From a virus, in the IMG/VR virus record IMGVR_UViG_3300035698_024280: DNA of 64,000 bases; one strand, written 5' to 3'. The notes beneath the pieces are model-generated. The model was given only the letters and a program-made list of their open reading frames with translations, was not told where the DNA came from and did no database searches. Below, in pieces: positions 34,870 to 63,996 of the stretch (its first letter is position 1; each line of letters begins with the position of its first letter). The position numbers were made by a program, and so were the translations under genes.

Positions 34870-34931
34870 ATTTAATAATTTTGTTTACCTTAGCCTCATT
34901 GGCCTTAATATAATTATACGAGGGTTCCTAT

Positions 34932-35375
34932 TTAAACGATCTTGATGCGACCTGGTCGCAGCGACAATTGTCGCATTTCAAAGATAAGTTCATTGTCAAT
35001 GAACATCGAGTTATACTTAGCTTCAGCTTCAGTGACTGCGGCTCGAGTCGCAGCTATATCAGCAACTGTCCAAACATTGTATTCATTAAGAGTATCAACA
35101 TCCGTTTGCCACTTTTGAATCAACTTAACTCTTTCATCATCGATATCATCCGCTACCTTATCCTCAGGACCTACCCTGAGCCACCCGTTACGGGCGAGCA
35201 CCGGATCTAAGGTATAATTAATGATATATTTACCCCCCATTAAAACCGATGCCGCGACCGAATAATCTGGATGGAAGGTGTCAATAATTCCGATATATTC
35301 TTGACCAATGACTAATTCATATCTTTGGACCGGTTGCGCTTCACTGTCGACGATTGTATTATTTGTTACTGCCAT
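34932..35375 (-). CDS. Hypothetical protein, paralog of 35397..35759
   Basis: RYEL....IGIIDTFHP.Y shared; leaderless promoter. Confidence 0.75.
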   Translation of the reverse strand: MAVTNNTIVDSEAQPVQRYELVIGQEYIGIIDTFHPDYSVAASVLMGGKYIINYTLDPVLARNGWLRVGPEDKVADDIDDERVKLIQKWQTDVDTLNEYNVWTVADIAATRAAVTEAEAKYNSMFIDNELIFEMRQLSLRPGRIKIV

Positions 35376-35396
35376 ACTATAATTATACGGGAGTTC

Positions 35397-35759
35397 CTAT
35401 GTCGTCGCATAATTAAATAGCGATCGATATGCATTGCGGGTCTCCATCATAGCATACATTGCTTGATGAATATCCTTAGGAGTGATAGTATTAGCATCAT
35501 TGAGCTCATCACAGTGCTTCTGCATTGTCTCGTGGAGAGTTATAGCATCGGAGTGAAGAATAAGATTAGACTCACGAGTCGACCCCTGGAGTTGGTGATG
35601 ATCGTCGATAGTATTAAATGCAACAACATATGGTGAAAGGCGATCTAACCGTTCTCTCCCTGGCTTCACGTCTGCGTACGATGGGTGGAAGGTGTCAATG
35701 ATTGCGATGCAGCGGATTCTATCATCTAATTCATATCGGTCGTTTGTAGTTGCTTGCAT
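35397..35759 (-). CDS. Hypothetical protein, paralog of 34932..35375
   Basis: RYEL....IAIIDTFHPSY. Confidence 0.7.
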   Translation of the reverse strand: MQATTNDRYELDDRIRCIAIIDTFHPSYADVKPGRERLDRLSPYVVAFNTIDDHHQLQGSTRESNLILHSDAITLHETMQKHCDELNDANTITPKDIHQAMYAMMETRNAYRSLFNYATT

Positions 35760-35787
35760 TATAATCTTTCGTTTTTGGGTGTATTTG

Positions 35788-36033
35788 TTATGACATCGAA
35801 TCATCGTCAGCTGCATCCTCGAAATCATCGATTGCGCAATCGATGATTTTGGCGATGTCTATCTCCGACACTCCCTGGTAGTAAAACTTCTCTTTTAGTA
35901 CCCTGAGATCATAAGTGGTTTTGCACATGTTTGAAACGCTCCCATTGTCCAATTTAATTTGAATAGTATTCCATTTTGACTGTTGAAGCGTCTTGTATTC
36001 CTCAGCCGTTGCAAGTCTAGTTAATTTATCCAT
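35788..36033 (-). CDS. Hypothetical protein, duplicate of 36077..36322
   Basis: KLTRLATA.EY..L..S.WNTI.IKL.NG; own promoter. Confidence 0.8.
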   Translation of the reverse strand: MDKLTRLATAEEYKTLQQSKWNTIQIKLDNGSVSNMCKTTYDLRVLKEKFYYQGVSEIDIAKIIDCAIDDFEDAADDDSMS

Positions 36034-36076
36034 ATTATTATTATACAGGGGTTACCTTTATTGAGCGTATTTGTTA

Positions 36077-36657: not shown

Positions 36658-36882
36658 TCAGTCAGCGCCGAGTAAAAACTGATCAATCGCGGCATCTAAA
36701 TTATCTGGAGACATTGAAGTTACTTCAACTGCCCAATCCAGAACAGCCCAGGTTACTCCATCGCTGCCATCCTCGTATGTGATCTTTTCTTTGAGAGCTT
36801 TGTAGCGTCGCTCATTGAGTTCCATTCGATCGATCTTCTCTAAGACCTCCTCTAATGGTAGTATAAGTTGTGATTCTGGCAT
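36658..36882 (-). CDS. Hypothetical protein, paralog of 36330..36638
   Basis: Same motif. Confidence 0.75.
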   Translation of the reverse strand: MPESQLILPLEEVLEKIDRMELNERRYKALKEKITYEDGSDGVTWAVLDWAVEVTSMSPDNLDAAIDQFLLGAD

Positions 36883-36943
36883 AATATAATTATATGTGAG
36901 TGGCGGGGCTCGTCTTGAGATTTATCAGGAGTGAAGCTGCTTT

Positions 36944-38708: not shown

Positions 38709-38921
38709 TTAATTTTCTGTGACGGGCTGGCTAATTGACTTCATCGCCGTCGAAATTGAATTAACCCAGAAATCAATCTCATTTTCCTCGATACTTTCTG
38801 GACCAATTCTGATTGTTTGCACTCCTACTTTGAGCTTAAGACAATATCTAATTTCACCGTCATCCTCCTTTAGTAGTACTTCAATATCCCAACCTTGCAT
38901 ATTGTAATCCTCACCTTTCAT
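38709..38921 (-). CDS. Hypothetical early protein
   Basis: Start at promoter ATG (MKGEDY). Confidence 0.7.
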   Translation of the reverse strand: MKGEDYNMQGWDIEVLLKEDDGEIRYCLKLKVGVQTIRIGPESIEENEIDFWVNSISTAMKSISQPVTEN

Positions 38922-38967
38922 ACTATAATTATACGGGGGTTCCAAATTGTGTTTAAATCAGAATACA

Positions 38968-39015: not shown

Positions 39016-39357
39016 TTAAGCAACTTTCTCAGAAGCAACGGGTGCAGTAACTTCCACAGAAGCAACGGGTGCAGCAACTTCCACAGTCGCTGCGAGCTTC
39101 GCTTCCAAATCAGCTTTCATTTTCTGAAGCTTCTCGATTGACTTTGCAGCCTTTGCAGAGCCTTTACTCTCCAGCACCAACTCTTCAATCTGTTCGCGAT
39201 CTGCACTTTGAAGCAGGGCATTGAAGAGTTCTTTATCTGTAACTCGTCCACTCTCCTCAGTCTTAATGCTGTCGCGAAGTTCAGAAAAGTCAGCACGATC
39301 GAAGTCGCTTACCATTACTGTTTTGAAACGATTTACTTTGTTGTTTTTATTAGCCAT
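39016..39357 (-). CDS. Candidate ribbon-helix-helix DNA-binding protein, paralog of 43687..43956
   Basis: FKTVMV strand plus two helices; Ala/Lys-rich tail; 27-bp tandem repeat at 39030-39083 encodes VEV(A/T)APVAS twice. Confidence 0.55.
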   Translation of the reverse strand: MANKNNKVNRFKTVMVSDFDRADFSELRDSIKTEESGRVTDKELFNALLQSADREQIEELVLESKGSAKAAKSIEKLQKMKADLEAKLAATVEVAAPVASVEVTAPVASEKVA

Positions 39358-39442
39358 AATATTTGTTTGTTTGTTTGTTTGTTGTTGGTTGTTTGTTATT
39401 CCCTACACTATTATTATATGGTAGTTCCTAAAGTGATTGTTT

Positions 39443-40880: not shown

Positions 40881-41351
40881 TTATAATTTTCTAGTCTCAC
40901 ACTTGTGAGTTACGACGAAGGTAGTAGCTGCTTGAAACTTAGTTCCACAGGAGCAGGTAATCGTCTCATATTGAGTCTCATCTGAATCGTAATTATCTGA
41001 TAGATAGCGACTACTCATAAAGTCGTAATCACAATCTGGGCAATGAAAATCTGCTGCTACCTTGTTACGGTCGCCGTGCTTGCTTGCAAAGTCGACCCTT
41101 GCTGATGCTGCGTATAAGTCTGGAAGCCCATCAGAGAAGATAAAGCACTTACGTTGATAAAGCTGCAGTCTCTCAATCTTTTCAACAAACCACCCAAAAC
41201 CATCGTCGTGATTCTTATAAAAATCCCCATCCTTATCGATAGTATAATAATTCCAGATGGTGTCATTTGCAGACATACTGGATCCAAGACATCCGTTTTT
41301 ATCGAGCTTAACTGCCATGTATTTAGTTTTCTTAAATTGGTCGTCTTTCAT
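40881..41351 (-). CDS. Hypothetical protein with C-terminal Zn ribbon
   Basis: CPDC...CSCG..F; leaderless promoter. Confidence 0.7.
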   Translation of the reverse strand: MKDDQFKKTKYMAVKLDKNGCLGSSMSANDTIWNYYTIDKDGDFYKNHDDGFGWFVEKIERLQLYQRKCFIFSDGLPDLYAASARVDFASKHGDRNKVAADFHCPDCDYDFMSSRYLSDNYDSDETQYETITCSCGTKFQAATTFVVTHKCETRKL

Positions 41352-41423
41352 ACTATAATTATAGCGAGATTCCTAATATACTGTTACGTGTATAAAAAAA
41401 GGCCTCACATTACGAGACCTCAG

Positions 41424-41662: not shown

Positions 41663-41881
41663 CTATAGCCCCTTAACGCCGTTTTCATATCCCACTGCAT
41701 AAGCGTTAGTAATAGCGGCATATATAGGGTCGTCCTTATCTATCATGTATTGCTCGCAGTATTTAATTGCTCGTTTCTGAGCACGGAAGAGATCCTCTGT
41801 GCCATCCTGCTTGACTCTCAATGATGAAATGACCTCTGAGGAGTCGAGGGTCGGGGCTGTTGCTTTGCTGAGATTATCCAT
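41663..41881 (-). CDS. Hypothetical protein
   Basis: Promoter plus A/C-rich leader. Confidence 0.65.
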   Translation of the reverse strand: MDNLSKATAPTLDSSEVISSLRVKQDGTEDLFRAQKRAIKYCEQYMIDKDDPIYAAITNAYAVGYENGVKGL

Positions 41882-41928
41882 AATAATTGTTTTTGTTGTC
41901 TTCTACTCTATTATTATACAGTAGTTCC

Positions 41929-42171
41929 TTAGTACGGCGCTTTGATTTCTTCCGCTACAATATCCCAATCAACATCAATTGGGAGCTGTCGAGCAGCTCG
42001 AATTAGAGATCGAATGGCGCGTGGGTATGCATTGATTGCTGCAGTCTCGTATGAATCAAGATCAGGTTCCGTACCTTCTTCAATATGTTCAGTGAGAGAT
42101 TCGACATTTTGCTGCAGCCCTAATAGGGTATTAGCAAATTGGCAATAGGACATGTTAGGGCTGTTTCTCAT
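41929..42171 (-). CDS. Hypothetical early protein
   Basis: Leaderless promoter at its ATG. Confidence 0.7.
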   Translation of the reverse strand: MRNSPNMSYCQFANTLLGLQQNVESLTEHIEEGTEPDLDSYETAAINAYPRAIRSLIRAARQLPIDVDWDIVAEEIKAPY

Positions 42172-42192: not shown

Positions 42193-42399
42193 CTATTCCT
42201 CAAACTTTAAAACTTCTACAGGAAACTGCCCTACGGGGAGGATCTTATATGATACTGATATACCTGAATATGAATCCCGACCAGACGCCTTAGACTTATC
42301 AACGACAATAGTTGCTTCGATTTGCGTCTCCTCAATGCCAATAATTTCAATACTAAAATTCCACCGTCGGCATTCTTTTCTGGTTATAATATACTGCAT
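42193..42399 (-). CDS. Hypothetical early protein
   Basis: Start at MQYIITRK after TATAAT-6 nt. Confidence 0.6.
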   Translation of the reverse strand: MQYIITRKECRRWNFSIEIIGIEETQIEATIVVDKSKASGRDSYSGISVSYKILPVGQFPVEVLKFEE

Positions 42400-42429
42400 G
42401 TTCTTATTATAAAGAGGTTTGTTAATTGA

Positions 42430-42517
42430 CGGCCCCTGCAGGATTTGAACCTGCATCTCAACATTAAATGTTTTGAAAGCATTTAACCGTCTCGCTCTAC
42501 CGTTGAGCTAAGGGACC
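42430..42517 (-). tRNA. tRNA-like RNA with elongated anticodon arm (loop CTTTCAAAA)
   Basis: Acceptor GGTCCCT/AGGGGCC, D arm GCTC-AACGGTA-GAGC, T arm GCAGG-TTCAAAT-CCTGC; 39 nt between D and T arms. Confidence 0.65.
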
Positions 42518-42576: not shown

Positions 42577-42663
42577 GGGTCCCCGCAGGATTTGGACCTG
42601 CATCTCATGACGATAATGTTGCGAACATTTAACCGACCGGCTCTACCGTTGAGCTAAGGGACC
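42577..42663 (-). tRNA. Second tRNA-like RNA with elongated anticodon arm (loop TTCGCAA)
   Basis: Acceptor GGTCCCT/GGGGACC, same D arm, T loop TCCAAAT; tandem duplicate of the previous unit. Confidence 0.6.
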
Positions 42664-43372: not shown

Positions 43373-43621
43373 TTATGAGTAATAAACTTCATTCTCTGCT
43401 GCAACCCGGACCAATTCTGCATGACTCTCACATAGCGACTGGATAAAGGGAGGGCACTGGATCTTATAATCTGGAGTCTTATTCCAATTAAAAATATAAT
43501 CACCGAAGAATTGTGTTACAGTAAAATTACCGATAGTTAAATTTGCGCAGCCGACCCAGGTTTCAAGCTGCGTTGGGTCTGAGCCTTTAATAATTTGTTC
43601 CGTGTAAGATATAATTTGCAT
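43373..43621 (-). CDS. Hypothetical early protein
   Basis: Leaderless promoter. Confidence 0.7.
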   Translation of the reverse strand: MQIISYTEQIIKGSDPTQLETWVGCANLTIGNFTVTQFFGDYIFNWNKTPDYKIQCPPFIQSLCESHAELVRVAAENEVYYS

Positions 43622-43686
43622 ACTATTATTATAAAGGGGTTCGTTTTATTTTAATCTCTCTGAAGCGTTGTCAATCTTGCACAAAC

Positions 43687-43956
43687 TTAGAACTGAGTAC
43701 CGTTCGACTTAAGAAACAGTTCCTTCTCGAGCTTTTGGATCTTCTGACGATTGGCTGCTACCTTACCTGCTTGCTTAGCAGCAAGAACAGTCTTAGCAAT
43801 TACCGTGGTAGCTGCATTAGAAAACATAGCTTCAAAAAGCTCTTTATCAGACACGCGTCCCAGCTCTTCAGTTTTAAGAGAGTCACGAAGCGCTGTGAAC
43901 GCTTTACGGTTATCATCGGTTACCATTACAGTTTTGAATCGGATTGTATTAGACAT
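43687..43956 (-). CDS. Candidate ribbon-helix-helix protein, paralog of 39016..39357
   Basis: RFKTVMV...F..LRDS.KTEE.GRV.DKELF.A. Confidence 0.6.
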   Translation of the reverse strand: MSNTIRFKTVMVTDDNRKAFTALRDSLKTEELGRVSDKELFEAMFSNAATTVIAKTVLAAKQAGKVAANRQKIQKLEKELFLKSNGTQF

Positions 43957-44019
43957 ATTATTTGTTGGATTGTATTTGTTACCTTCTACTCTATTATTAT
44001 ACAATAGTTCCGTTATGCT

Positions 44020-45221: not shown

Positions 45222-45422
45222 TTATTCCTCAAAGACCTTGATTGCTCTCTTGATGTCAGAATAACTAACTTCAATTGCAAGATCATGGCCTGTCATCGAA
45301 AGGTTGATGAGAGTCTCCCCTCTGTGATTGTCGGAAGCGCTGATCTTCAGTTCTGATTTAAGTGCTTCCTCATCCCAACCCTCCAAAGAGGAATTAGATT
45401 TAATTGGTATTGATACAATCAT
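45222..45422 (-). CDS. Hypothetical protein
   Basis: TAATG coupling to the RNA ligase. Confidence 0.6.
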   Translation of the reverse strand: MIVSIPIKSNSSLEGWDEEALKSELKISASDNHRGETLINLSMTGHDLAIEVSYSDIKRAIKVFEE

Positions 45423-46039
45423 TATTTAACTTTACTTTTAGGCATATCATCATCCTTGATAGTCTTCTTGAATCCTACCCCCCCAGCAACATGATAAATA
45501 ATAATGCCCTCAGGGTTCATAAACCCAGGAACAGCCGAGCTCCCATTGTATTTAAGCTCTTCTAAAATCTCATCTGGATTTACTTCAGCAAACGGACCAG
45601 TCCAAAGAACTGGTACAATATCGCAACACGGTGGAAGTTCTTCCTGCATCCTGACAATCGTAGGATTTGGCTGGCGAATCTCTTTTGGCTCATCCGCAGC
45701 GTAGTGCCATCTCTCGGTATTGAACAGACTAAATCGACGGTCGAGGAGACCATATGATCGTTGAATCTTTTGCCCCCACCACTCGCCGTAGTGTCGCCCA
45801 GGTCCTAAAGAAGTCTTTAGCTCGTCGCGATGATCTTCGACCCATTGAGCAAAGCCGTAATTATCATTTTCAGGAGTGAGCCATCGTGACCTACTCCCCG
45901 CTAGAACTGAACCATCTTCAGTGATGCACACTTGGCTATTAGTACCATCGATCTTCTCTGTGACAATACAATCCCGTGAAAAGCGGCCCATCTTCGGCCA
46001 CTCCCGAAATTCTTCTGTAATATTAGTTTGTTCTGACAT
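45422..46039 (-). CDS. RNA ligase, Rnl2-like nucleotidyltransferase domain
   Basis: Motif I TEKIDGTN, GSRSR, motif III YGEWWG, F.LFN, motif IV EGIII, motif V FKK. Confidence 0.85.
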   Translation of the reverse strand: MSEQTNITEEFREWPKMGRFSRDCIVTEKIDGTNSQVCITEDGSVLAGSRSRWLTPENDNYGFAQWVEDHRDELKTSLGPGRHYGEWWGQKIQRSYGLLDRRFSLFNTERWHYAADEPKEIRQPNPTIVRMQEELPPCCDIVPVLWTGPFAEVNPDEILEELKYNGSSAVPGFMNPEGIIIYHVAGGVGFKKTIKDDDMPKSKVK

Positions 46040-46060
46040 AATTAAATTATATGGTAGTTC

Positions 46061-46267
46061 CTATTCTTCGTGCCTACCTGTATCTTCCACCCAAAAATAC
46101 CCGCTCTCGTCGTTGTGTTCCCACTCCTCTGTAGCTTCCTCAGAATCCCTTTCATACTTAGTAAAACAAGGATGACAAAACAGCTTGCGACCATCGGTCA
46201 CTGGGCGAAGTTCAACTCCGGTAGCTGTATTACAAGCTAGGCAGATTAACGTATTCGACCTTTTCAT
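46061..46267 (-). CDS. Small Zn-finger protein
   Basis: CLAC...CHPC and acidic tail. Confidence 0.6.
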   Translation of the reverse strand: MKRSNTLICLACNTATGVELRPVTDGRKLFCHPCFTKYERDSEEATEEWEHNDESGYFWVEDTGRHEE

Positions 46268-46714: not shown

Positions 46715-46972
46715 TCAATCTTGATAAATATGTTCACAATAATTATAAACGAGTGCACCAAAACCATCAAAGTAATTAGACTCCCCAAACCTCTTAGGAT
46801 CATCTCTTAGAGCTGCTGCGAATAGATCTATGTCGAGAGGATCAATGTTACTTTGACTCTCCATAGATTCTAACGCATTGCCTTGTGCTTCAATCATGGA
46901 CGACGTAAATATACACAATGCAGCATCAACGCGCTGATTGAACATCAGAGAGAGGTCATTGGATCTTTTCAT
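46715..46972 (-). CDS. Family B paralog
   Basis: F......AL..F...A..P..F...YF......YYE-type pattern. Confidence 0.7.
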   Translation of the reverse strand: MKRSNDLSLMFNQRVDAALCIFTSSMIEAQGNALESMESQSNIDPLDIDLFAAALRDDPKRFGESNYFDGFGALVYNYCEHIYQD

Positions 46973-47222
46973 AATAATTAAAAATTAGTTCAGCTCCCCC
47001 ATCTTCGAAATAATTCCTCCCGAACCACGACGGAGCAAACTCGATCAAAGACGCAATTGTCTTCAATGCCTTCGTGTTATTCTCTTTAGCTCCTCTCATT
47101 GATGCAATCGCTTTGCATTGTGAAGCTCTCAATTGCCTGGCAAAATCAGAGAGAGGCAATTCAATCCTATCATTAAGTGTGAGAGTGGGCAGTGATAATT
47201 GCTTCATCAGCTCAGTATTCAT
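46956..47222 (-). CDS. Family B paralog
   Basis: FAPSWFGRNYFE..GAELI..YYE. Confidence 0.7.
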   Translation of the reverse strand: MNTELMKQLSLPTLTLNDRIELPLSDFARQLRASQCKAIASMRGAKENNTKALKTIASLIEFAPSWFGRNYFEDGGAELIFNYYEKIQ

Positions 47223-47409
47223 TTGTATATTGTTTATAGACGGGTTCTTCTATACCAGTGCCATCATCACCATTGTCGTCGAACCATCTTGCGGCATACT
47301 TAATCATCGAAGCAACATTATGTAGAGTGCTTTTATCAACTTCTTCGGTCACGGCCATCACTTCTAAAGCGTCATTGTGCACCTCTTCAAATCGTTTTTT
47401 CAAAATCAA
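47212..47409 (-). CDS. Family B paralog (short)
   Basis: ASMIKYAARWF. Confidence 0.65.
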   Translation of the reverse strand: MILKKRFEEVHNDALEVMAVTEEVDKSTLHNVASMIKYAARWFDDNGDDGTGIEEPVYKQYTNEY

Positions 47410-47478
47410 TAAAACTGTCCACGCTCCGATGATAATATTCGCAGCTGGCTTCTTCTGTTCTCCTGATACTCATAGGTG

Positions 47479-47811
47479 TTAAGTAACTTCCTGCAGATCT
47501 TTAATAAACGAACTCTGCCATACTATCTTTGAAATGATATCCTCCACCTTATCCTGAAACACCCGGAACGACTCCCCGGAGTTATAATGAACGAAATCAA
47601 ACACAGCGGCTAATTGATTTGCAGCATCTTGATCACCCTTCAAACCACCTCGTAATGATTCTAATGCAGCGGTCTGTACGTCAGCGAAATGATCAGTGAA
47701 ATCTACCCACGCGAAATCACAACGAAAATCATAGGAGAAAGTATCGCTTTCAACTGCCCTCATAATGCTTAATAATATGTGTTTCAAGACCCCCTTCAAT
47801 AGACCGTCCAT
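47479..47811 (-). CDS. Hypothetical protein, possibly a distant family B member
   Basis: Q.AALE.L...D.....QLAA. Confidence 0.6.
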   Translation of the reverse strand: MDGLLKGVLKHILLSIMRAVESDTFSYDFRCDFAWVDFTDHFADVQTAALESLRGGLKGDQDAANQLAAVFDFVHYNSGESFRVFQDKVEDIISKIVWQSSFIKDLQEVT

Positions 47812-48916: not shown

Positions 48917-49171
48917 TTATATCAGATATTCCAGCTCATAATGTTTATGAATAAGATCTGCGCCACCAACCTCCAAATAGGCATCTGCGAAGTAGCGATG
49001 GGCATGTTCTCCTACAGCCGCTAATTTATTAAAACTATCTCGATTTCCTTCATCGCTTTTAAGCTCCTCAGCAAAAGCGAATCTTAGATCATCGAGCTCG
49101 ACTGCTAATTCAGAAAGAGCCTGACTCGGTCGATGGTCAAACATAATGAGGGAGCTTAATGTTTTTGCCAT
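48917..49171 (-). CDS. Family B paralog, first in array
   Basis: SLIMFDHR shared with 48908; YF......GA.LI..HYE. Confidence 0.75.
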   Translation of the reverse strand: MAKTLSSLIMFDHRPSQALSELAVELDDLRFAFAEELKSDEGNRDSFNKLAAVGEHAHRYFADAYLEVGGADLIHKHYELEYLI

Positions 49172-49183
49172 ACTATAATTATA

Positions 49184-49390
49184 TCACTCTCTTCCGTCGC
49201 CAGGGAGCATTCCATATACCATACATATCTTAGTAGTGCGTAGAGCAGCAAGATACCCCCTATCGAAAGATTCCATCTGTAATTCGGACCCATTGGCTTC
49301 AATAAACTGTGCAATAAGGTTATCAATCAGCTGAGCTGCGTCCTCACGCTTCCATTCCACCGCCTCTTCTTTTTTATTTTCATCTTCCAT
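49184..49390 (-). CDS. Hypothetical protein
   Basis: 68 aa, co-oriented. Confidence 0.6.
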   Translation of the reverse strand: MEDENKKEEAVEWKREDAAQLIDNLIAQFIEANGSELQMESFDRGYLAALRTTKICMVYGMLPGDGRE

Positions 49391-52839: not shown

Positions 52840-53388
52840 TTATACGGGAGTTCCATTCCAACCGCAATCGCCGCAGCCGAGCAATCTACCCTCATCGAGT
52901 GCCGTCTCACCATCGTCGCAATCAGGGCAAATGCCCGTAGCTAGAGATAGCACAACAAGAGCTGCTTTATACTTAATTTTCTTTCTCTCTGACGGTGCAC
53001 CTAATAAGTTGTCTTGAATATCTGCAATCTTGATTACTGATGCAGTATAACTTCCAGACACTCGAAAAATATAACTATCATAAGACTCACCTACCTTATG
53101 TGTAATGTCGTTTACACCTTCACTGATAAAGTTGTCGAAGCCTTGCAATTCCTTTAAGGGGCAGTTGGTTTTCTCTAGGATATCATGCAACCACGCGATG
53201 GCAATTGCTTGGATACCTACCTCGCTTCTTTTCGCGACCCTCTCTGCAACCCGCGCTAGGTGAGCTGTCTCCAACTCACCACATCTCCTCTCTTGAACTC
53301 CGTGATGGGTCCGAGCAATCTTAATAGCTTTTGATAGAGCTAGAAAATGTGGGGTCGGGTCGGATCTCGCCCATGTAGGTGCTGTCAT
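52840..53388 (-). CDS. HD-domain protein (SpoT/MESH1 alarmone hydrolase-like) with C-terminal Zn ribbon
   Basis: A..IA...H..Q.R, H...VA, WLHDILEKT, KIADI.DN; CPDC...CGDC. Confidence 0.75.
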   Translation of the reverse strand: MTAPTWARSDPTPHFLALSKAIKIARTHHGVQERRCGELETAHLARVAERVAKRSEVGIQAIAIAWLHDILEKTNCPLKELQGFDNFISEGVNDITHKVGESYDSYIFRVSGSYTASVIKIADIQDNLLGAPSERKKIKYKAALVVLSLATGICPDCDDGETALDEGRLLGCGDCGWNGTPV

Positions 53389-53418
53389 ACTATTATTATA
53401 AAGGGGCTCCGAAAAAAT

Positions 53419-53489
53419 TGCCCTTTCAGGAATCGAACCCGCATCAGCGTACACTATTTGCACACCGCTCTGCCATTGAGCTAGAGGAC
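53419..53489 (-). pseudogene. Degenerate tRNA-like copy related to 53702..53772
   Basis: D arm and T loop (GGGTTCGATTCC) retained; acceptor mismatches; anticodon loop AATAG not canonical. Confidence 0.55.
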
Positions 53490-53555
53490 TTAAAGTAAAT
53501 GTATATTAAGAGCTAATAGCTCTATATTATAGAGGATGTTACCATCCGGAAAAGG

Positions 53556-54493: not shown

Positions 54494-54748
54494 TTAATCA
54501 AAAAGTACAGACTCTACCCAGTCTCTATCTACCCCTGGCATCGCGGGTAAGACTGTATCCTCAGGTACAGCATCTACCCACTCTAAGAGTGCTAAAGCCA
54601 CCGCTCGAACTTCAGATAATACTGTCAGTGAGGTAGCCATTAATTTTATCTGATCGGGGATATTATCTGCCGCGGCCTGATATCCATCCGGGATCAAAGA
54701 CGAGAGTTGACCCTCTAAGGTCGGTGGTGTATTTGAAACGGCTCTCAT
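54494..54748 (-). CDS. Hypothetical early protein
   Basis: Leaderless promoter; LLEW.DA.P....AMPG.DRDW. Confidence 0.7.
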   Translation of the reverse strand: MRAVSNTPPTLEGQLSSLIPDGYQAAADNIPDQIKLMATSLTVLSEVRAVALALLEWVDAVPEDTVLPAMPGVDRDWVESVLFD

Positions 54749-56835
54749 ACTATTATTATACAGGGGTTCCTTAATTGTACTTTATATCACAATAAGTATC
54801 TAACTTGTCCCATACAGCGAACATAACGACAGATCTAACACTCCTTAAAGTTTTTTGTGTAAATATCGACTCTACATACTGCCGATTATGACTAAATCTT
54901 TGAGGCGTGTATAAACCTGTATCAAAAATAGTGTATGATAGCATAAGAGGCCCACTGGAAGGTAATAATAATAGCTGGTCTATATTAGGAGTATTATTCA
55001 TAGGATTTAAGCGACGCGCGCACAAATAACCCTATATTAGAGAGCTTTGTTGTTGGTGATGGTATGGGAGGCATATAAGAGGTTAGAAGATCGTGAAACC
55101 AATACCGCTCACTGCAGTTATTTGATGTAATTAAAATATTAGAGTGTGGATCTGTAGTACTATCTATTGCCGAAAAAAACTCATCGACGATCGATTTATA
55201 TTTTATTGGAATTTTGGAAGTATTAGAGAAACTCATATGAATGTAGTTTTTGTGTAATATGTAGAGCTATGCCTCTTCTTATACCGTATGAATCCTCATT
55301 AAAAAGTGCAGCTTCGTATGAATTTCTAATATTAACTAATGTACTGATTTCATAATAATAATAGTCGATAGTTTTATTGTTGATATTGCAGTCTAAGCTG
55401 TTGGAATATATTAATTCGCGCCAGTTAGAAAATGCCTGTCGCGCTTGCGTAATGAGCCGATTGAGATCAAAGGATCTTTTTTCTTTTACAGTCTTCATAT
55501 AAATGCAGTTTACAGCCCACAAAAAATTCTATATTATTATTAGTTTTAAAATGAAGCGAATCAAAGTAGGATAAATAGCTTTTTGAATCTAGAGCATATA
55601 CCACAGCAGACTGAACCTGGTGAAAAATATCGAAGACCAGTCTACGCTTACTGAGTTTGCTTTTTGTATTAAACATATGAACTAAATTTATCGTTGAGAT
55701 TTTTTATCATACTAGCTCGAGTGTAGATAGTCAATTTTCTATTAAATAATAATTTGGTTTCCTGGTAGTGGTAGTTTTGCTTATAATTGTTTGCGCCGAC
55801 GGTTAATGTATAACATTCCTCATGATCATCAAATAAATAACGTCGTCCCGGTATATATAGCCGAGATTTGGGTAATGGTCGCATTACATAATTAATGGTC
55901 TTATTTGTATCCATACAGTTTTTTTGTTATAAAATTACTTAATGAGTTTGTCAACTTCACATTAGTTTTAAGGGCATACAAACTCATAATGTCGGCATTA
56001 TCATATAACTTACAACCAGATTCCGCAGAGTAAAATGAAAAGGGATTACCCTTAGACGATATATTTCGAACTTCTTTAAACTCTCTCCAAATATTACAGA
56101 ATCGATTTAATTGCAGTGCTGTAGAATTATTCATATGTTTTAAGTTTACGATTTATAATATAATTATACGGGGGTTCCTCCCATTAAATCATTAATATAA
56201 TTATATTTTGAACTGCTTTAACCCCTATCCAAATGTTTTAGAATCAGACTGATTGTAGTGCTGTAGAATTATTTGTATGTTTCAAGTTTAAGAATTATAA
56301 TATGTACTATCGCCCATCTTTCCCGTCGCCTGGCGACGGGATTAATCGCCATTAATTCATTAATATACCTAAATTCTTCCCAAATAGATGTAGCAGCGCG
56401 GTTTATATCTGATATATTACTCATACGACTCAAGTTTAATGCATACTTGCGACCATACAGCATACTTCTTCATATATTTTTGAGATATGTTATTGTAAGC
56501 GGATGCAACATTAGTATAATTGTAATATAGTTGTTTATTGTTTGCAGTAATACACCATTTTTTGGAAATACTATGTTTATGTTTCGTTAATTGCGAAATG
56601 CAAATTACAGGTCTCACCATAAAAGTATAAACGCTATTCATATTCTTTCATTTTATCGTGTATTATGCCGCTCTTCTTATCACTAAGGCGTTCGTCTGAT
56701 TTACGCTCAAACAATATTTTAACTGTATTATACCCATACAAATTATTATGAGATTCTGTAGAAACGTATCGTGTCAGTTTATGAAAGCGATTAAATTCAG
56801 CCCAAATTAAAGCGTAATGGTATTGTCTGCTGGTA

Positions 56836-57446: not shown

Positions 57447-60400
57447 TAGGTTTATATGTTTCTAACTGCGTTTCAATAGAAAGCATTATTTCATATTTGA
57501 TCGGGAGCATATCAAGTTTTCCGTATATTTCCTGAACTAATAAATAATCTGTAAAGGCTTCACATGTAATCTGTTTTCCTTCAGTATTATATAATATCTG
57601 ATATTCTGATAATTTACATTTCCAAAATTCTTCCCATATTGATTTATCAGGCTTAATTAAATTTAATAAATTAGACATTATTATGTTAAATTGATTAAGT
57701 TAAACATTCTCCTGGAATGGGCGCATCCCCATCGCCCAGCGCTGTGGGGGATGCGATATGTATGTTCTTTGCTGATCACATATAGCCCACATTATAGTAT
57801 ATCGTCGCGTGTTGCTTGATTTATTATCAAATGCGGCTTTAATATATCTATAGTCGTAATTTTGTTTTTTAAATCTGTAAGCCATTTCGGTTACCATGCC
57901 ATATGATGGAAAATCCTCACCATTAAAGTTGGTGAATTCTTTCCATATTGATCTCCTAGGCTCGATTAAAATTACATTATTATTCATTAGTTTACCGCTT
58001 TAAGGTTGAAATTTGGTTTTAATCTTTATAAGAATCTAGCTTCGCATTAACTATCTGTGAAACTGTCCGTGTCCAAATTATTTGGGAGGTTGTTCGATTA
58101 AATGATGTAATGGAGTCAAAATAAAGTTCTAATAATATAATGTTATTGAGACGAGACCTGTCTGAGGTTGTCGAGTTTAACATTGTGAGCTTTTTAATAA
58201 TATTACAAGAGAATGATGTCCGAATACAGTACGGAGATTGCCTACCTATCGAATCTAATGTGCGAGGGTGCAACTGTATATTATTTTTCATTTCTGGTAT
58301 TATAATGTTTAGCGGAACTATTAATCGAAAAGTAAAAGATTTGATAGTTGTATAATTAGCCCATCAGGACCTCTGCCTTTTGTGTTTCTAAAAACTACAG
58401 GGAATTCGTTACAAAATTTTAGTTTAATTAATCTTTGACTCGGTAATGGCAATCGGTTGAATAATATATACGGAGAGTCGTCTGGAAGCTTAATAAGTAT
58501 ACGCTTTTTCATTTTATCGTTCCGTGGTCGTGTTATACCAATTTCGTAAATGGGATTCAGTGAACGAAATGCCCTTAGTGAAGGCTAAGCGGTATCTGTC
58601 ATTAAACTCAATCCTTATCAGAGCATAATTTGTATATGATAAGCTGTAATATTTCGTTAGGTTTTTTTCATCATATGCGATTCCTAGATCGTAAAAAAAG
58701 CCGTCGATAGAACACATTTGAATCAGTAATTCATCCTCTGCATTATAATATGTTTGTGCTGTATATTCCATTTAGTTAATTATACACTCTTGAGAGATTT
58801 AAATTGACTATCCAGATGCACCTTTATATGGTCCTGAGCCGGGTTGGATACCTGCATATAATTCCACCATATTTGAGCACCGACTCTAAACTTCTGGCTT
58901 ATCTCATGCTGAGTGTGTGGATCTATATTATTAATTCTACCGAAGGTATCTGCAACAACGACACCGCGTCTAACTAAACGGTCAGGTAGAGCGATTGCTC
59001 GCCAAGCCATGGTAAGGGCTGGTGGCGGGCAGATAATTATAATATTCATAATGCGATTATGGCAGCATAACTATTATGCTGTAAGGTTGTAACTCTCAGA
59101 TAAAATAAAATCACGTGAGCTATACAATAATTATAAAGAGGTTCCTTTACATTTATTAATATCAATAGCTACCTGATTTATTATTTATATGCGGCTGTAA
59201 CATGTCAGTAATCGTTCGACCAGATCGCCTCATAAATACATAAAAATTATTCTGAGGTAAATTTACATACCGACGCTCAATGTTTATAATTGTACTATCA
59301 TCAAGATTAAATACGTAACAATCTAGCTCTTTTAATAAGGCTGAAGATGGGTCAATTAAAGCTATATTATTTTTCATTATATCTCTCGAATTGTTGACTA
59401 TCAAAAAAGCTATAAATCATATAAGATATCGATGGGCCTCGTCTATTAATAAATTTTACGCGATGTGCAACATATGTAGTACGTATAGGCCCATCGCGGC
59501 CGTCGCCTGCTATGTCAGCTCGATCGAATAAGCTATTAACTGACGAGTCAGGGACATGGACCTTAATATTACGGATTACTTCTTTGTACTGCATTATAAA
59601 AGTCGTCTAGTTTTGAGAGAAATAGTATATTTAAATTCGCCGACATATTTGCTCCCGATCGCTGCAGAAATATAAATCTAGGAGTGCCGGGTAATCCCCA
59701 TTGAGTATACGTGAGATATTTTAGTGTTGGATTATCTTGAGTGATCCACAAATTACATAAAAATGGAGGCTTATGTATATCTCTTTTCGTCATTATATTG
59801 TTCTTTAAAGAGGAATTTGAAACGAGTCGCAGCATCGGTAGTGCTCCTAAATCGATACCACCTAGTATATGCTGATTTATATGCAATCGATATTGATTTG
59901 TGAGCTTGACATTCACCCCACCACCATCTAATATAAAAGAATTCCTCCCCGTTTAGATTTATTTGTCTTTTAGTACCCATGCAGCATATATATTATTTTT
60001 TATCTTTATAGGACCTCAGTTGTTTTGTAATGGCAAATTTGATAGGGGCACAGCAAAAGCATGGTAAATCAAATCGAGTACAAAACAGTTGCTTAAATCT
60101 ATAATATGAGGGGGATGCCCTCGCGCGAGGGACTTTCATTCGTATTCTGCTATTCTTATACTCCTGTAACAGGTCGCATAGTTCATCGTCTATGAAATGG
60201 TTTGGTACCTTAATTGTTACATCTTTACTTCTTTTCATTTTGCTTTAATTTTTGAGATGATTATACCATCGTATTTACAATTCATATAGTTTATGATGCT
60301 TTATATTATGTAAACGTTCTATTGCGTCACCTACAGAGTTAAAAGGGAATGGAGTTGAGGTTGAGTTAAATCGATTGCTCCAATTGTTTAGATGTGCTGC

Positions 60401-62112
60401 TTTATCTATAAAATGGAAATCTTTAAATGGGGCAGTGAGAATATATTCATATGTAGGCTTTCTATATTTTTTCATTTAGCAGTGATTGATTTATAATACC
60501 TAGTATATGCGCTCTAAATCGTTGGCTTTTTATGATTGTGGTAGATGTAAATTTGTGATTTTCCATCCAAAATTTAAGCAGTAAACTATTACCTATGGCT
60601 AAATCTGCAAATTTATGTATGGGTTCTGGATAGTTAATTGACACTTTACTTTTACTTTTCATTCCGCTCAAATTAACAGTTTCTTCTCCAGGATCGAGTT
60701 AGTTTACCAGCGAGTAATCTATTAAAAGTATTGGGATGATTTTTTTCAATAGTTTCAATATAGTTATCGCGCCAGAAGTTAAATAATACGCTTCCCCTGC
60801 CTAGAAAAGTTGCAAATTTAGATATTTCAGATCTCGGATATTTAATTGTTATTTCTCTGCGTATTTTCAAACTTTCAATTTAAGGTCAATGGTTTTAGTG
60901 TTGCAATTTGCATATCGATAGCGGTGATTATACCATCGTGTAAAAGCGATCGGAGCGCATACAGGTGTTGCACTCTTGTATGTACTATAGTTCTAACGTT
61001 GAAGAATATAATTCTCAACTCATCTGGATTTCGACCTAAATCCAACAAGTCAAAAATATTACTATGTTTTGACATCATATTTCTTAATTACCTCGAATGC
61101 ATCATTTAGCTTACTAACAATATTGCCTCGAACTTTATTGCCTCGAACTTTCTGCTTACGCATTATAAATCTTCTCCAAATATACAAAGCCTCGACACCC
61201 CCCCCTCGTTGATTCAATATATCTGCTTGTTGGGATATTACAGCTACCCAAAGCATATAAAAGACTTCTTCCCCGGGTTTGCTACCTAAGTCTTTCATAA
61301 TGCTCTTGTACTTCTCTCCCATATTTTTGTTCAAACTCCCTAAGTATGTGTATTCTTGCACTTTGATGCACGCTGCTATTTAAAATAAGAGAAATATACC
61401 AGGTTGAATGCTCAGAGGTTTTATTTCTAAGACGTGTAGGGAAATAAGCCCAAAGCATATCTGTTATTTGCTGAGTAGCTCGTTTAGGTTCAAAATCTAA
61501 GATATCATAAAACGCAGGACCGTTTATGGAACTGCCTTCAAAATTAATACTCATTATTTAATTCCTTAAATGATATAGTTAGGAACCGCATTTTTAGATT
61601 ATATGTTTGCTTATTGGCGGTGTATGAGGGCTCTCGGGTTCTATAAAATAGACTTGAGTGACCGACATACTTCATTGGGTTAGATGTTTTAGGCTCACCC
61701 GAATTAAGCCATTTAGTGGAGAGGGCAGAAACTAGACCTATATATGCTAAGCGATGTGTAAATATAGAATCCGTTAGCCTCTCAGACTGTTGTTTATTCA
61801 GCTTCATTACTCGCGTCGCGCTTAGATTTCAAAATCATGATACCTATCTACTATTAAATGCTTAAATAGAAAATTGTCTTCCCACCAATCATCGAATGTT
61901 ATAGTGTTGCTCTTATTAAGAGAATCCCAATGTATTTTACACTCATGCAGAATGCCCATTGTAGGCATTCGATATGGATACGCATCAGTGTAATGGAACC
62001 ATAACTCAGTCACATCATAATTAATTTGGCTCAAATGGACAGGTCGGCTTTGGGCTTTAGTGGTCGGGAATTGTTCTGATTTAGTAGACATTATAAATTA
62101 GACAAATAAAAA

Positions 62113-62206
62113 TGGTGCAGGTGGAGGGATTCGAACCCTCAATGTGATCATTAATCCGTGTTGGATTTTAAGTCCAATGCGTTTCAGCCAGTTTCGCCAC
62201 ACCTGC
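62113..62206 (-). tRNA. tRNA-Leu(UAA)
   Basis: GCAGGTG/CACCTGC-ACCA, loop CT-TAA-AA, long variable arm, T arm GAGGG-TTCGAAT-CCCTC; own promoter at ~62237. Confidence 0.93.
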
Positions 62207-62245
62207 ATGTTGTTAAGGGTAACTATATTATTCCTTATACTATTA

Positions 62246-63996
62246 TTATATAGAAGTTCCTTTATTTCCAAATCTATATGCATCCATCGCTTGTAATAAA
62301 CATAAATAATGCGGACGCGCCTTATGAGGGAAACGGTTGGTTACAATATTAAAAGATATTGGGCGCTGATTCAAAACGTGTATCCTTAGACGCTCGGCAT
62401 CATTTTGTTGTGATTGCTTAATAATTATCATTTTAAGGGTAGGTCCCAGTATTTTAGTATTTCTATGTGTTTCTGCCTGGCAGCTCAATGCCTTTCGTTA
62501 AAAAATATAGAGAGTTTATGCGGTTTCTGTCGTTTTTCCTCAATTTTTCACCTGATATTAAGTAAAGTGAGGCGTATAAATGCTCGCTCAGCACCTGTAC
62601 CTATAAAGCTAATAGCCATACTATATAATAACTGATCAGAGATATTTGAGTGAATAATACGCCTAATTTTATAGGTTAAATCTGGCTCATTGTAGCATGA
62701 TACACTAGTTGGGAGTACTTTCATATCTGATTGTCTTTTATTTGAAATTATGCGAATTGAGGTTACGAGCGATTATAGTCGCGAGGGGAGGCTGTAGCCT
62801 ATCACCTCTGAAGAAAAATGTAGATATTTCACGTTTAACGTCTGAGGCTAGTGGCCCGTCAATTGTCGACCAGACCAATGTTGGGATTATAATATATCCG
62901 GGTTGCGTGACCGCGTTTCTTATGGTTACTGATCTTACCATTTAAAATTGTATATTTGTAGCTGTACCTTATTTAACATCATGTAAACTAAGATAGAGCC
63001 TTTGTCTCACCGCTGATTTAATATTAGACCGTCGCTTGCCTTGAGTTTGAAAAAAAATACCAGAAATTTCCCAGACTCTGTCCTGAGAGAGTGATTCATT
63101 AATAGTCGACAAAATAAGGCCGAATGTGTTCGGCCGTTTCAGGAGCGGCATTTTATTATCCTTCATGTGAAACGGCATTCATCATCGCATAATAGCATCG
63201 CCTCATTGATTCATGATGAGAGCGGTTAATTGCTATACGCGAAACCTTCCAGACTAAAACTCCATCTACCGATTTAGTAACAGCTTCCCACAAACTCGAC
63301 TCAAATGCTATGGGTAGGCTTAGTATATCTTTAGCGTACTTCATTTAAGCGTAAGCAAGTGACGGGATTGAGTTCGTTTCTGAATTGAGTATTGCCTTCC
63401 ATACGAATTCTCGCCCGGCAGATTGACGGATTACGTTGTTTGATATCGCCCAGATTATATCTCTATCTGCCGATTTGCGAAGCATTTCTGACAAATTATG
63501 CTCAAACGGTCTGGGCGTAGCTAGCGGTATAGGTGGTGACCTTCTCATTTATGTGCGAATAGGTGACGATATACAGCTGCTCTAGTACTTATAATACCTG
63601 CAGCTGGAGGCGTCGTTCTAAATACTTTTACTGCAACGGACTGATATATATATATAGATAATTTTTCAGATATCAATTCAAAGGATGCTTTCGACAACTC
63701 AAGGTGAGGCTCTATACATATCTTTAGTTTTATTGATTTTCCATCTTTCATATTACAAATAAGCTAAACGCGTGTATTCGGTAGGGAAGTTACTATTTTG
63801 TATAAACTCATCAGTAAAATATGATATCAAAATAGTTTGATATAGCGGACTTAATTAGCTTTCGTTGAGGAATTATATCTTCGTTTTTGTACTTAGGTTT
63901 ACCATATCTATACGGACCTGTCTCTACAGCTATGCGGCACAGCGGGAAACATATCGAATCCCATACCCCAAATGGCGTGTCTTTTAAACGACTCAT
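62246..63996 (-). other. Continuation of the small divergent ORF array (about 8 ORFs)
   Basis: 62969, 63156 and 63345 ORFs share P..F...L....S.D....W.IS pattern; overlapping starts and stops. Confidence 0.65.

Follow-up and report, generated by a model that had tools for sequence, protein, structure and literature searches.

A 27-base signal that recurs ahead of dozens of small genes, and also of some tRNAs, in an uncultured marine T4-like phage very likely acts as a promoter. The reading we favor, with a probability of roughly 0.6, is that its copies form one phage promoter class which would produce leaderless mRNAs and in which a GGAAC box would replace the –35 element in recognition by a sigma70-type host RNA polymerase.

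Within the window, that is, the whole 64,000-nt stretch of viral DNA analysed, there are 38 GGAAC-N5-TATAAT matches with at most one mismatch, against 2.7 expected (100 shuffles; mean 2.69, maximum 7). Thirty-three of them lie on the minus strand at 34.9–62.3 kb; together with three or four further degenerate minus-strand copies (36904, 42421, 42568, and 49183), they come close to the 38 or so cassettes of the original prediction. The block and its copies are listed below, followed by the degenerate and outlying sites.

34904..62262, minus: gene block with 33 copies of WAGGAAC-N5-TATAAT-N6-(ATG), small same-strand genes
62236..62262, minus: leadered copy (+1 ATA); tRNA 62206-62116 begins 32 nt on
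59121..59147, minus: leadered copy (+1 ATA); ORF start 59049, 74 nt on
56154..56180, minus: leadered copy (+1 ATA); leader 22 nt, ATG 56134
54746..54772, minus: candidate promoter; ATG 54748 at N6, ORF 84 aa
54466..54492, minus: candidate promoter (GTAAC); ATG 54468, ORF 222 aa
53671..53697, minus: candidate promoter, then tRNA 53629-53556; 7-codon frame alone at +1
53386..53412, minus: candidate promoter (GGAGC) directly after a tRNA-like 3' end; ATG 53388, ORF 182 aa
52830..52856, minus: candidate promoter; ATG 52832, ORF 65 aa; TATAAT contains the upstream gene's TAA
50921..50947, minus: candidate promoter; ATG 50923, ORF 45 aa
50051..50077, minus: candidate promoter; ATG 50053, ORF 101 aa
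49718..49744, minus: candidate promoter; ATG 49720, ORF 108 aa
46452..46478, minus: leadered copy (+1 ATA); 187 nt to next ORF start 46267
46037..46063, minus: candidate promoter; ATG 46039, ORF 205 aa with RNA ligase domain PF09414
45197..45223, minus: candidate promoter; ATG 45199, ORF 117 aa; GGAAC adjoins upstream TAA
44349..44375, minus: candidate promoter (GGAAA) after terminator hairpin 44425-44394; ATG 44351, 23-codon frame
43987..44013, minus: leadered copy (+1 GTA); A/C-rich leader 33 nt, ATG 43956
43619..43645, minus: candidate promoter (CGAAC); ATG 43621, ORF 82 aa
43345..43371, minus: candidate promoter (GTAAC); ATG 43347, ORF 96 aa
42169..42195, minus: candidate promoter; ATG 42171, ORF 80 aa; box overlapped by upstream TAG
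41904..41930, minus: leadered copy (+1 GTA); leader 25 nt, ATG 41881
41349..41375, minus: candidate promoter (GGAAT) after terminator hairpin 41421-41399; ATG 41351, ORF 156 aa
40837..40863, minus: candidate promoter; ATG 40839, ORF 36 aa
40442..40468, minus: candidate promoter (CGAAC); ATG 40444, ORF 77 aa
39677..39703, minus: candidate promoter; ATG 39679, ORF 78 aa
39404..39430, minus: leadered copy (+1 GTA); CAAA-repeat leader 49 nt, ATG 39357
38919..38945, minus: candidate promoter after terminator hairpin 38993-38974; ATG 38921, ORF 70 aa
37682..37708, minus: candidate promoter; ATG 37684, ORF 57 aa
37148..37174, minus: candidate promoter; ATG 37150, ORF 68 aa
36636..36662, minus: candidate promoter (TGAAC; box start is the upstream TGA); ATG 36638, ORF 102 aa
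36320..36346, minus: candidate promoter; ATG 36322, ORF 81 aa; tandem paralog of the 36033 cassette
36031..36057, minus: candidate promoter (GTAAC); ATG 36033, ORF 81 aa; tandem paralog of the 36322 cassette
35373..35399, minus: candidate promoter; ATG 35375, ORF 147 aa
34904..34930, minus: leadered copy (+1 AAG); leader 37 nt, ATG 34869; heads an operon of about 7 paralogs (34869-32653)
49169..49195, minus: TATAAT-N6-ATG 49171 without box; ORF 84 aa, of a 5-paralog family (46956-49171) in which two other members (starts 48908 and 48363) keep the –10 box before the ATG
42397..42423, minus: degenerate copy (CAAAC); TATAAT-N6-ATG 42399; its sister copy at 42568 precedes tRNA-like 42517-42430
36880..36906, minus: degenerate copy (GCCAC, box lost); TATAAT-N6-ATG 36882, ORF 74 aa
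19409..19435, minus: outlying copy (GGATC); TATAAT-N6-ATG 19411; heads the 7-deazaguanine operon 19411-16515

The full motif, W-A-GGAAC-c-c-C-y-n-TATAAT-w-A-T-A-G-T-ATG, is longer than originally described; in its sequence logo, conservation extends from –24 to +3, and the –35 region is flat. TATAAT is present in all copies and corresponds to a consensus –10 element at –12 to –7. Taking the A of the ATG as +1, GGAAC occupies –22 to –18 and the extended GGAAC(C/T)C box –22 to –16, within the would-be spacer. Among the window copies, information stays below 0.45 bit throughout –45 to –26, and TTG at the 16–17 bp spacing of a –35 element occurs in just one or two of 30; a Shine-Dalgarno-like word was found in 2 of 130 window genes. 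These counts agree with the earlier remark that neither a Shine-Dalgarno sequence nor TTGACA is visible. The extended –10 (TGnTATAAT, TG at –15/–14) is absent from all 33 window copies, nine of which carry TG shifted to –14/–13; relatives do show TGATATAAT. No RNA structure was detected in the motif (MFE –3.24 versus –3.11 for shuffles).

The ATG follows TATAAT by exactly 6 nt in 25 of the 33 minus-strand copies, and 26 minus-strand sites of the form TATAAT-N6-ATG open ORFs of 40 aa or more, close to the estimate of about 27 such copies; all 13 cases with a window ORF of 50 aa or more show a box-to-ATG offset of 6 nt. Because TATAAT ends 6 bases before the ATG, the motif-headed mRNAs are probably leaderless, and no room is left for a Shine-Dalgarno sequence. 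In 108 of 153 cases, a full motif is followed by ATG as the +1 codon; most of the rest have GTA or ATA, and none of the 153 has GTG or TTG. The start triplet, T(–1) A/G(+1) T(+2), conforms to the YRY start element (PMC12641261). Given the consensus –10 at –12 to –7, the fixed 6-nt AT-rich discriminator (AATAGT), and the T-A-T start triplet, transcription would begin on the A of the ATG, and the resulting mRNAs would have neither a 5' leader nor a Shine-Dalgarno sequence. Thus, the idea of a promoter yielding leaderless mRNA finds good support at the sequence level in the invariant –10, the fixed distance, the T-R-T triplet, the lack of GTG and TTG at +1, the scarcity of Shine-Dalgarno words in the window, and the copies ahead of tRNAs and leadered genes. 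Furthermore, in eight of the 33 copies the +1 triplet is ATA, GTA, or AAG and a leader of 22–187 nt comes next, and Rfam-confirmed tRNAs lie downstream of two copies (62260 and 53695, the latter an ATG copy whose frame spans just 7 codons), which argues that the motif is a transcription signal and not a translation signal.

The dense part of the block (34.9–54.8 kb; GC 40–44%) holds 30 copies and about 56 genes, and the sparse part (54.8–62.3 kb; GC 33–36%) holds three copies, all leadered, with 33 genes up to 64 kb. The original prediction stood as to the motif array itself, but had placed a copy ahead of nearly every gene; only about 25–30 of the some 56 minus-strand genes at 34.9–54.8 kb are so headed. 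As 33 genes follow three leadered copies and about half of the genes are motif-headed, many units are operons of 2–10 genes instead of single-gene cassettes, and calling each gene a self-contained module was an overstatement, own copies being confined to about half of them. The stop codon of the upstream gene, said to form the motif start often, does so in 5–6 of the 33 copies; its TAA falls within TATAAT in another four, and the stop lies 5' of the motif in 19. This hyperplastic block, made up of small early-type genes that are mostly orphans, would be driven by the promoter class, as would several tRNAs and short operons.

Relatives bearing the box, whose capsid proteins are 68%–75% identical, contain about 80 copies apiece. 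In relatives, GRAAM stands at –22 in 89% of 356 TATAAT-N6-ATG gene starts, and homologs in those loci exist for just one of 120 window ORFs. This conservation of the box points to functional constraint. The flavor of the box is genome-specific, being GGAACCCC in the window, GGAAA in the relative G002, and CGAACTCCGA in G004, which fits co-evolution with a specific reader. In G002, 44 of about 49 cases have the ATG at an offset of exactly 6 nt, and TTG at a 16–17 bp spacer is also present in 13 of 73 box sites, giving composites such as TTGACT-N6-GGAAA-N5-TATAAT with –35, box, and –10. No box exists in the complete sister genome G005, which instead carries TTGACt-N16/17-TATAAT-N6-ATG on the same core; the motif was not found in the cultured T4-likes or bacterial genomes examined either. 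Box-class and –35-class sites number 36 and 12 in G001 and 55 and 8 in G002, where the ORFs behind box-class sites are small (median 85 aa) and the genes behind TTG-class sites longer (median 152 aa). Two classes heading different gene sets in one genome suggest differential regulation, possibly via a phage factor. Together with late TAAATA, box and TTGAnn-N16/17-TATAAT promoters appear to make up three classes in one phage lineage, all positioned for leaderless transcripts.

How the box is read is the point on which explanations diverge. In the favored model, it would take over the role of the –35 element by making the closed or open complex formed with a sigma70-type host RNA polymerase more stable, as does the Z-element, which was mapped to –22 to –18 (AACCT, AACAT), is read via the RNA polymerase beta-prime zipper, and substitutes for the –35 given a consensus –10 in three bacterial RNA polymerases; its effects are modest (2–6 fold), the tested consensus was 'loose', and natural promoters of this type were predicted by Yuzenkova et al. 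2011 (PMC3173786). A box so nearly invariant looks more like a protein-specific site, which counts against a Z-type reading. A possible, though rather unlikely, alternative is a phage-encoded protein, virion-delivered or made from TTGAnn-type promoters, that defines a separate temporal class, either as an activator or sigma-appropriation-like factor recruiting host RNA polymerase to –35-less promoters or as a repressor silencing the block later. It would account for a box near-invariant inside a genome yet varying between genomes (GGAAC, GGAAA, CGAAC) and for the two upstream-element classes with different gene sets in G001 and G002; the MotA/AsiA middle promoters of T4 (PMC2988021) offer a precedent. 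The four related genomes gave no match to MotA or AsiA (PF09114, PF09010) and G001–G004 none to a single-subunit T7-type RNA polymerase (PF00940), both in searches run without a positive control. Genes shared by box-bearing genomes only encode sugar-nucleotide enzymes, a helicase C-terminal domain protein, a phosphoesterase, and RNA ligases; no product resembles a DNA-binding or regulatory protein, in a comparative screen blind to small, fast-evolving proteins. Moreover, a factor displacing sigma region 4 would fit poorly with composites whose –35 is correctly spaced, and the driven genes resemble the earliest ones, of the host-takeover type, for which a phage protein is normally not required. 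Reading by an alternative host sigma is highly improbable. GGAAC is the classic ECF –35 word, but it lies 5 nt from the –10 rather than 16–17, and that –10 is a perfect housekeeping TATAAT, not of the CGTC type. Likewise, AGGAAC-N5-T shares the block spacing of sigma54 sites (TGGCAC-N5-TTGC, the –24/–12 layout) and has the GG, yet the GC at –12 is absent from 33 of 33 copies. Spacing disfavors this rival, and in G002 the box lies within sigma70-type promoters with TTGAnn at 16–17 bp. The 'non-sigma70 upstream element' was therefore half right: it is not a –35, but it sits in a sigma70-type spacer at the Z-element position. Since it shares that position and co-occurs with spaced TTGAnn in G002, an exotic sigma is not needed, and a phage factor is possible.

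It is doubtful that the motif is mainly a PeSL-like recombination site, at which homologous exchange between copies would excise, insert, and shuffle gene cassettes, with promoter activity secondary. The window genome has no close relatives, and breakpoints were analysed in related contigs, where 18.9% of 169 alignment ends fall within 30 nt of a motif versus 5.7% of random positions, a breakpoint is 2.5 times as frequent at motif-headed gene starts as at other ORF starts (p=5e-4), and some 10 of the 18 clean indels have an end between –22 and –46 relative to a motif. In the window, the tandem paralogs 36033 and 36322 were duplicated as units of motif, ORF, and 3' tail (81% identical), and spacer and flank flavors are homogeneous within a genome. 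Against this, no motif-to-motif indel or excision was seen in the related contigs, the far edges coinciding with ordinary ends of genes; what flanks one insertion is not the motif but a 47-nt duplication from the 3' end of the gene upstream; about three quarters of breakpoints lie elsewhere; copies share just 20–27 nt of identity; and enrichment is expected anyway if selection keeps whole expression units. The proposed recombination substrate thus retains the roughly 3-fold enrichment at the motif's upstream edge without motif-to-motif exchange, and a role in recombination receives weak support. Under the favored promoter model, each unit comes with start signals of its own, so that genes could be gained, lost, and duplicated as units next to the motif; this would follow from the design without being its shown purpose.

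Compared with known systems, the Z-element promoters (T7 A1 and A2 derivatives) are nearest in position: they likewise have a 5-bp spacer element at –22 to –18, need a consensus –10, and can do without a –35, as judged here at the sequence level, and their composites with a –35 have a counterpart in G002. Both elements share an AAC core, here 2 bp nearer the –10, but AACCT/AACAT and GGAAC(C/T)C are different sequences, and the phage box is near-invariant over dozens of copies and many genomes. The T4 middle promoters (PMC2988021) similarly combine a –10 hexamer with an upstream box other than –35 and form a second class beside sigma70-type promoters. Their MotA box (TGCTT) lies at about –30, a position not conserved in the window copies, and differs in sequence; they use MotA/AsiA, with no homologs found in the four related genomes (again without positive control), and the gene sets are swapped, the –35 class here heading replication-type genes and the box class small orphan genes. 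PeSLs (T4-type RB49/phi1, T4/PST, KVP40/nt-1; PMC2839356, PMC4122927) are also repeated early-type promoter units amid small orphan genes in hyperplastic regions of T4-type genomes, with breakpoints enriched alongside, as seen here in the related contigs, and tandem promoter-gene duplication, as seen here in the window. They differ in carrying a stem-loop, present in about 4 of 33 copies here (hairpin and T-run at 44373, 41373, 38943, and 44569; mean upstream MFE –10.9 versus –9.9 for shuffles), in having both –35 and –10 hexamers, and in ending in a Shine-Dalgarno sequence and start codon, whereas here the ATG abuts the promoter; nor did the related contigs show motif-to-motif indels. Finally, leaderless mRNAs (Deinococcus deserti, PMC4007540; actinobacteria; lambda cI) have a –10 box 6–7 nt before the AUG, and share with the phage copies the fixed distance, the use of AUG only, and the lack of a Shine-Dalgarno sequence. 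Unlike those cases, internal phage genes also lack a Shine-Dalgarno sequence, and the layout appears to hold genome-wide in a T4-like phage and for each of the three promoter classes, the late TAAATA one included.

Allowing one mismatch, we found 38 copies of GGAAC-N5-TATAAT in the window, whereas 100 dinucleotide-preserving shuffles of the window averaged 2.69 and never exceeded 7. The minus strand carries 33 of them, between 34.9 and 62.3 kb, which bears out the minus-strand repeat of the original prediction; the motif is a real and strongly non-random promoter class. Alignment of the copies revealed a conserved stretch, W-A-G-G-A-A-C-c-c-C-y-n-TATAAT-w-A-T-A-G-T-A-T-G, which spans positions -24 to +3 (the A of ATG being +1) and is longer than the motif first noticed; from -45 to -26 no position is conserved (information <0.45 bit). 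As predicted, the ATG keeps a fixed distance, exactly 6 nt past TATAAT in 25 of the 33 minus-strand copies, and the 6-nt offset from box to ATG was found in 13 of 13 cases among ORFs of at least 50 aa. In all, ORFs of 40 aa or more begin at 26 TATAAT-N6-ATG sites on the minus strand. The reported lack of a Shine-Dalgarno sequence also held, such a word occurring in only 2 of 130 window genes. Two further statements were too broad. The motif, said to head nearly every gene, heads about half of the ~56 minus-strand genes at 34.9-54.8 kb, and at 54.8-64 kb 33 genes stand behind just three copies, all leadered, that is, without ATG at +1 and with the gene start farther downstream. The upstream stop codon, said often to form the start of the motif, does so, within WAGGAAC, in 5-6 copies; in 4 others it falls inside TATAAT, and in 19 farther upstream.

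Several familiar signals were considered and rejected. Sigma70-type -35/-10 pairs are not enriched in the small-gene block (47 versus 47.1 expected; 67 versus 50.7), which speaks against a classic sigma70 -35 there, and a correctly placed TGn was found in 0 of 33 copies. A hairpin or RNA-structure reading failed since the motif RNA has no secondary structure (MFE -3.24 versus -3.11 for shuffles); hairpins upstream of copies are the exception. ECF, sigma54, MotA-box and T7-type promoters were rejected on spacing, on sequence or on genes missing from four related genomes searched without positive control. The motif-dense part of this hyperplastic region is compositionally distinct, with a GC content of 40-44% in the small-gene block (32000-54000) versus 32-38% in the structural/replication parts and at 54-64 kb. 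At 19409-19480, two promoters stand back to back: a box-type GGATC-N5-TATAAT-N6-ATG (19411) before the 7-deazaguanine operon on the minus strand, and opposite it a late-type ATAAATA-N6-ATG (19461) before a plus-strand gene.

In eight copies the triplet at +1 is ATA, GTA or AAG, followed by leaders of 22-187 nt, several of them A/C-rich. Two copies lie 32 and 44 nt before Rfam-confirmed tRNAs starting at 62206 and 53629. Copies thus precede leadered genes and also tRNAs, the latter no place for a translation signal, and the motif acts as a transcription signal. After the full motif in the window and in two complete genomes of box-bearing relatives (G001 and G002), 108 of the 153 +1 triplets are ATG; most of the others are GTA (11) or ATA (9), and none is GTG or TTG. 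Leaderless mRNAs need a 5' AUG, and this preference fits that need. With the transcription start inferred from sequence, the motif is placed so that the mRNA would be leaderless. Furthermore, its start triplet, T(-1) R(+1) T(+2), matches the YRY "start element" reported in bacterial promoters (PMC12641261), which would explain why non-ATG copies keep T followed by ATA or GTA. Some leaders without a Shine-Dalgarno sequence consist of A/C-rich CAAA repeats (39357-39406, 43956-43989 and 41881-41906, minus strand; for example CAACAAACAAACAAAC) and resemble unstructured translation enhancers; two of these copies stand before a pair of paralogs (39016-39357 and 43687-43956) that share 51% identity.

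Further tRNA-like genes lie near motif copies:

42430-42517 and 42577-42663, minus strand: tandem tRNA-like pair, 87-88 nt; ARAGORN tRNA-Phe, anticodon AAA; Rfam tRNA 47 and 36 bits
53418-53490, minus strand: tRNA-Tyr, anticodon ATA, by ARAGORN; nothing in Rfam at gathering score

The tandem pair is unusual in length and anticodon. Its downstream member, at 42517-42430, follows a degenerate copy at 42568 (TAAAC-ctctt-TATAAT), and a sister copy at 42421 heads an ORF at 42399. The 3' end of the element at 53418-53490 resembles that of the neighbouring tRNA and runs directly into a motif copy.

The window codes for a gp23-type capsid protein, portal, helicase, ribonucleotide reductase and 7-deazaguanine genes. 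Its capsid protein shares only 31-34% identity with those of cultured cyanophage T4-likes, and none of 50,697 phage records gave a near-DNA match. A capsid homolog search recovered >4000 uncultured relatives, the best 83% identical and the nearest at 80-83%; the contig of the best IMG/VR relative (79%) stops just past the capsid gene. IMG/VR held no close relatives of two window cassette genes, and its matches to the window RNA-ligase gene came only from unrelated 40-50 kb phages. The exact 20-base core of the motif occurs in 65 stretches of IMG/VR contigs, most of which hold many further copies on a single strand. Among 185,579 bacterial and archaeal species (one genome each), the extended motif gave a single match, which is chance level; the motif is thus neither a host sequence nor a prophage signal. 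The box-bearing relatives G001-G004 have capsids 68-75% identical to that of the window, and the complete genomes G001 and G002 carry ~80 copies each versus 4-9 for the control. Taking as unbiased anchor every TATAAT-N6-ATG that begins an ORF of 40 aa or more, we collected 356 sites from relatives, of which 89% have GRAAM at -22 to -18; the clade consensus is aAGGAACtcTGaTATAATaatagTATG. Of 120 small ORFs in the window, a single one has a homolog in the 638 kb of relatives' loci: the signal is conserved, the cargo is not. The cultured T4-likes examined are without the motif, and 0 copies were counted in a pelagiphage, a marine SAG-derived virus and a cyanophage. On this distribution the motif characterizes a lineage rather than being a repeat peculiar to one genome. 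In a FastTree capsid tree of 31 rows, many of them fragments, every box-bearing record falls in one supported branch (SH-like 96), which excludes G007 and the complete sister genome G005; such a tree is compatible with a single origin of the box. A Bacteroidota host, suggested by the missing Shine-Dalgarno sequences, was not borne out: the motif is not enriched in a Flavobacterium phage whose deazaguanine operon is similar (3 matches versus 1 control), and the clade's TTGAnn/TATAAT promoters do not resemble the Bacteroidota TTTG/TAnnTTTG type.

Three results from G002 and G005 bear on the nature of the box. Promoter classes in G002 have sharp ATG offsets: 44 box promoters at N6, TTG-N16-18-TAnnnT peaking at N6 and TAAATA late promoters peaking at N5. 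Moreover, 13 of 73 box sites in G002 are composites with TTG at a 16-17 bp spacer, as in TTGACT-N6-GGAAA-N5-TATAAT-N6-ATG. In G005 (capsid 68%) the box is absent throughout, and the genes, small-gene block included, are headed by TTGAct-N16/17-TATAAT-N6-ATG with the same TATAAT-aatagt-ATG core. Taken together, the composites and the box-less sister indicate that box and -35 behave as upstream alternatives on a shared leaderless core, and with the class offsets they support the box as a putative spacer element of sigma70-type promoters. The TTGACt promoters of the G005 small-gene block (L196-L197, 218-229 kb, minus strand) have a conserved spacer, …CCAAAtTTCCCa/g before TATAAT. Shine-Dalgarno-like words occur in 30 of 285 G005 genes versus 6 of 269 in G002, which may point to a different host. 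In G002 (L104), two different RNA ligase genes (164886-166061 and 173958-174959, plus strand; T4 Rnl1-type, and PHA02142-OB + RNA_ligase) stand behind composite -35/box/-10 promoters; the RNA-ligase-domain gene of the window (45422-46039) is box-headed.

Alternatively, the box might be the site of a candidate phage-encoded, perhaps virion-delivered, protein that replaces -35 recognition, coupled to genome-wide leaderless expression free of Shine-Dalgarno sequences. We consider such a protein unlikely; if real, it would mean that a large marine T4-like clade, so far uncultured, has a new sigma-appropriation-like system. It would fit the genome-specific flavours of the box (GGAACCCC in the window, GGAAA in G002, CGAACTCCGA in G004) and the coexistence of box-type and TTGA-type promoters heading different genes (36 and 12 in G001, 55 and 8 in G002), with the G002 box class concentrated in one ~50-kb block of small ORFs (median 85 aa) and the TTG class heading longer genes (median 152 aa). 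However, family searches of four related genomes, run without positive control, found no AsiA, MotA or T7-type RNAP; the small sigma-like ORF that turned up is probably a late factor. Genes that G001 and G002 share and G005 lacks were screened as well; they comprise sugar-nucleotide enzymes, a helicase C-terminal domain protein, a phosphoesterase and RNA ligases, with nothing regulator-like among them, a weak negative given that small, fast-evolving proteins would be missed. On a rarer variant of this reading, which seems highly improbable, the phage replaces G by a 7-deazaguanine and the two box G would be read as modified bases marking phage DNA for the polymerase.

The shared motif had also been proposed as a recombination substrate. 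As the window cassettes have no close relatives, breakpoints were scored in related contig pairs instead. Internal alignment ends fall within 30 nt of a motif in 18.9% of 169 cases versus 5.7% for random positions, and a breakpoint is found at 13% of motif-headed starts versus 5.6% of ORF starts without the motif (p=5e-4). Of 18 clean indels, about 10 have one border at the upstream edge of a motif (-22 to -46) and the second at an ordinary gene end; around one insertion, 47 nt from the 3' end of the upstream gene are duplicated. The breakpoints in relatives lend the proposal weak support; no motif-to-motif excision was seen among the related contig pairs. Within the window, paralogs 36033 and 36322 form a tandem duplication whose unit is motif, ORF and 3' tail (81% identical); other paralog families are confined to single operons or no longer carry the box. 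Turnover of genes as units next to the motif is clear; the motif itself is a candidate substrate. At 32653-34869 (minus strand), some seven paralogs of ~90-160 aa, 27-63% identical, form a tight operon behind the single leadered copy 34928. A five-member family occupies 46956-49171 (minus strand); three members (starts 49171, 48908 and 48363) have lost GGAAC but retain a -10 box, which lies 6-7 nt ahead of the ATG within the 3' end of the paralog upstream.

The early, -35-type and late promoters all seem positioned for expression without a leader or a Shine-Dalgarno sequence, so that a T4-type phage may run entirely on leaderless mRNAs. The helicase gene of the window stands behind TTGACT-N16-TATAAT-N7-ATG (3195-3239, plus strand), an ordinary sigma70-type promoter also placed for a leaderless transcript and of a class that occurs clade-wide. 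These observations bear on leaderless translation beyond actinobacteria, Deinococcus and archaea, and on what the ribosomes of the marine host accept. In practice, the motif is a sharp gene-start marker in these abundant uncultured phages, in which gene callers miss many small ORFs.

Among known systems, the array is similar in genome role to the promoter-early stem-loop (PeSL) cassettes of T4-type phages, defined by a stem-loop, a -35/-10 promoter, a Shine-Dalgarno sequence and a start codon (PMC4122927). The window units lack three of these four parts, and the motif array is no PeSL member by defining features. The Z-element of Yuzenkova et al., at -22 to -18 of T7 A1 (AACCT) and T7 A2 (AACAT), acts via the RNAP beta-prime zipper and can substitute for -35 in three bacterial polymerases, given a consensus -10; its authors predicted natural -10/Z and -10/Z/-35 promoters and had engineered T7 A1/A2 derivatives only (PMC3173786). 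Here, hundreds of natural, nearly invariant box-plus-(-10) copies are available, and a sister genome with -35 in place of the box provides an internal control, which makes promoter-spacer reading directly testable. The box shares the position of the Z-element, beside a perfect -10 and without -35, yet differs in sequence from the tested Z-elements and is much more strongly conserved than one would expect from their modest effects. The motif would work like the predicted -10/Z promoters without being a member by defining features, and is best described as a putative natural promoter that combines box and -10, has no -35 and is positioned for leaderless mRNAs.
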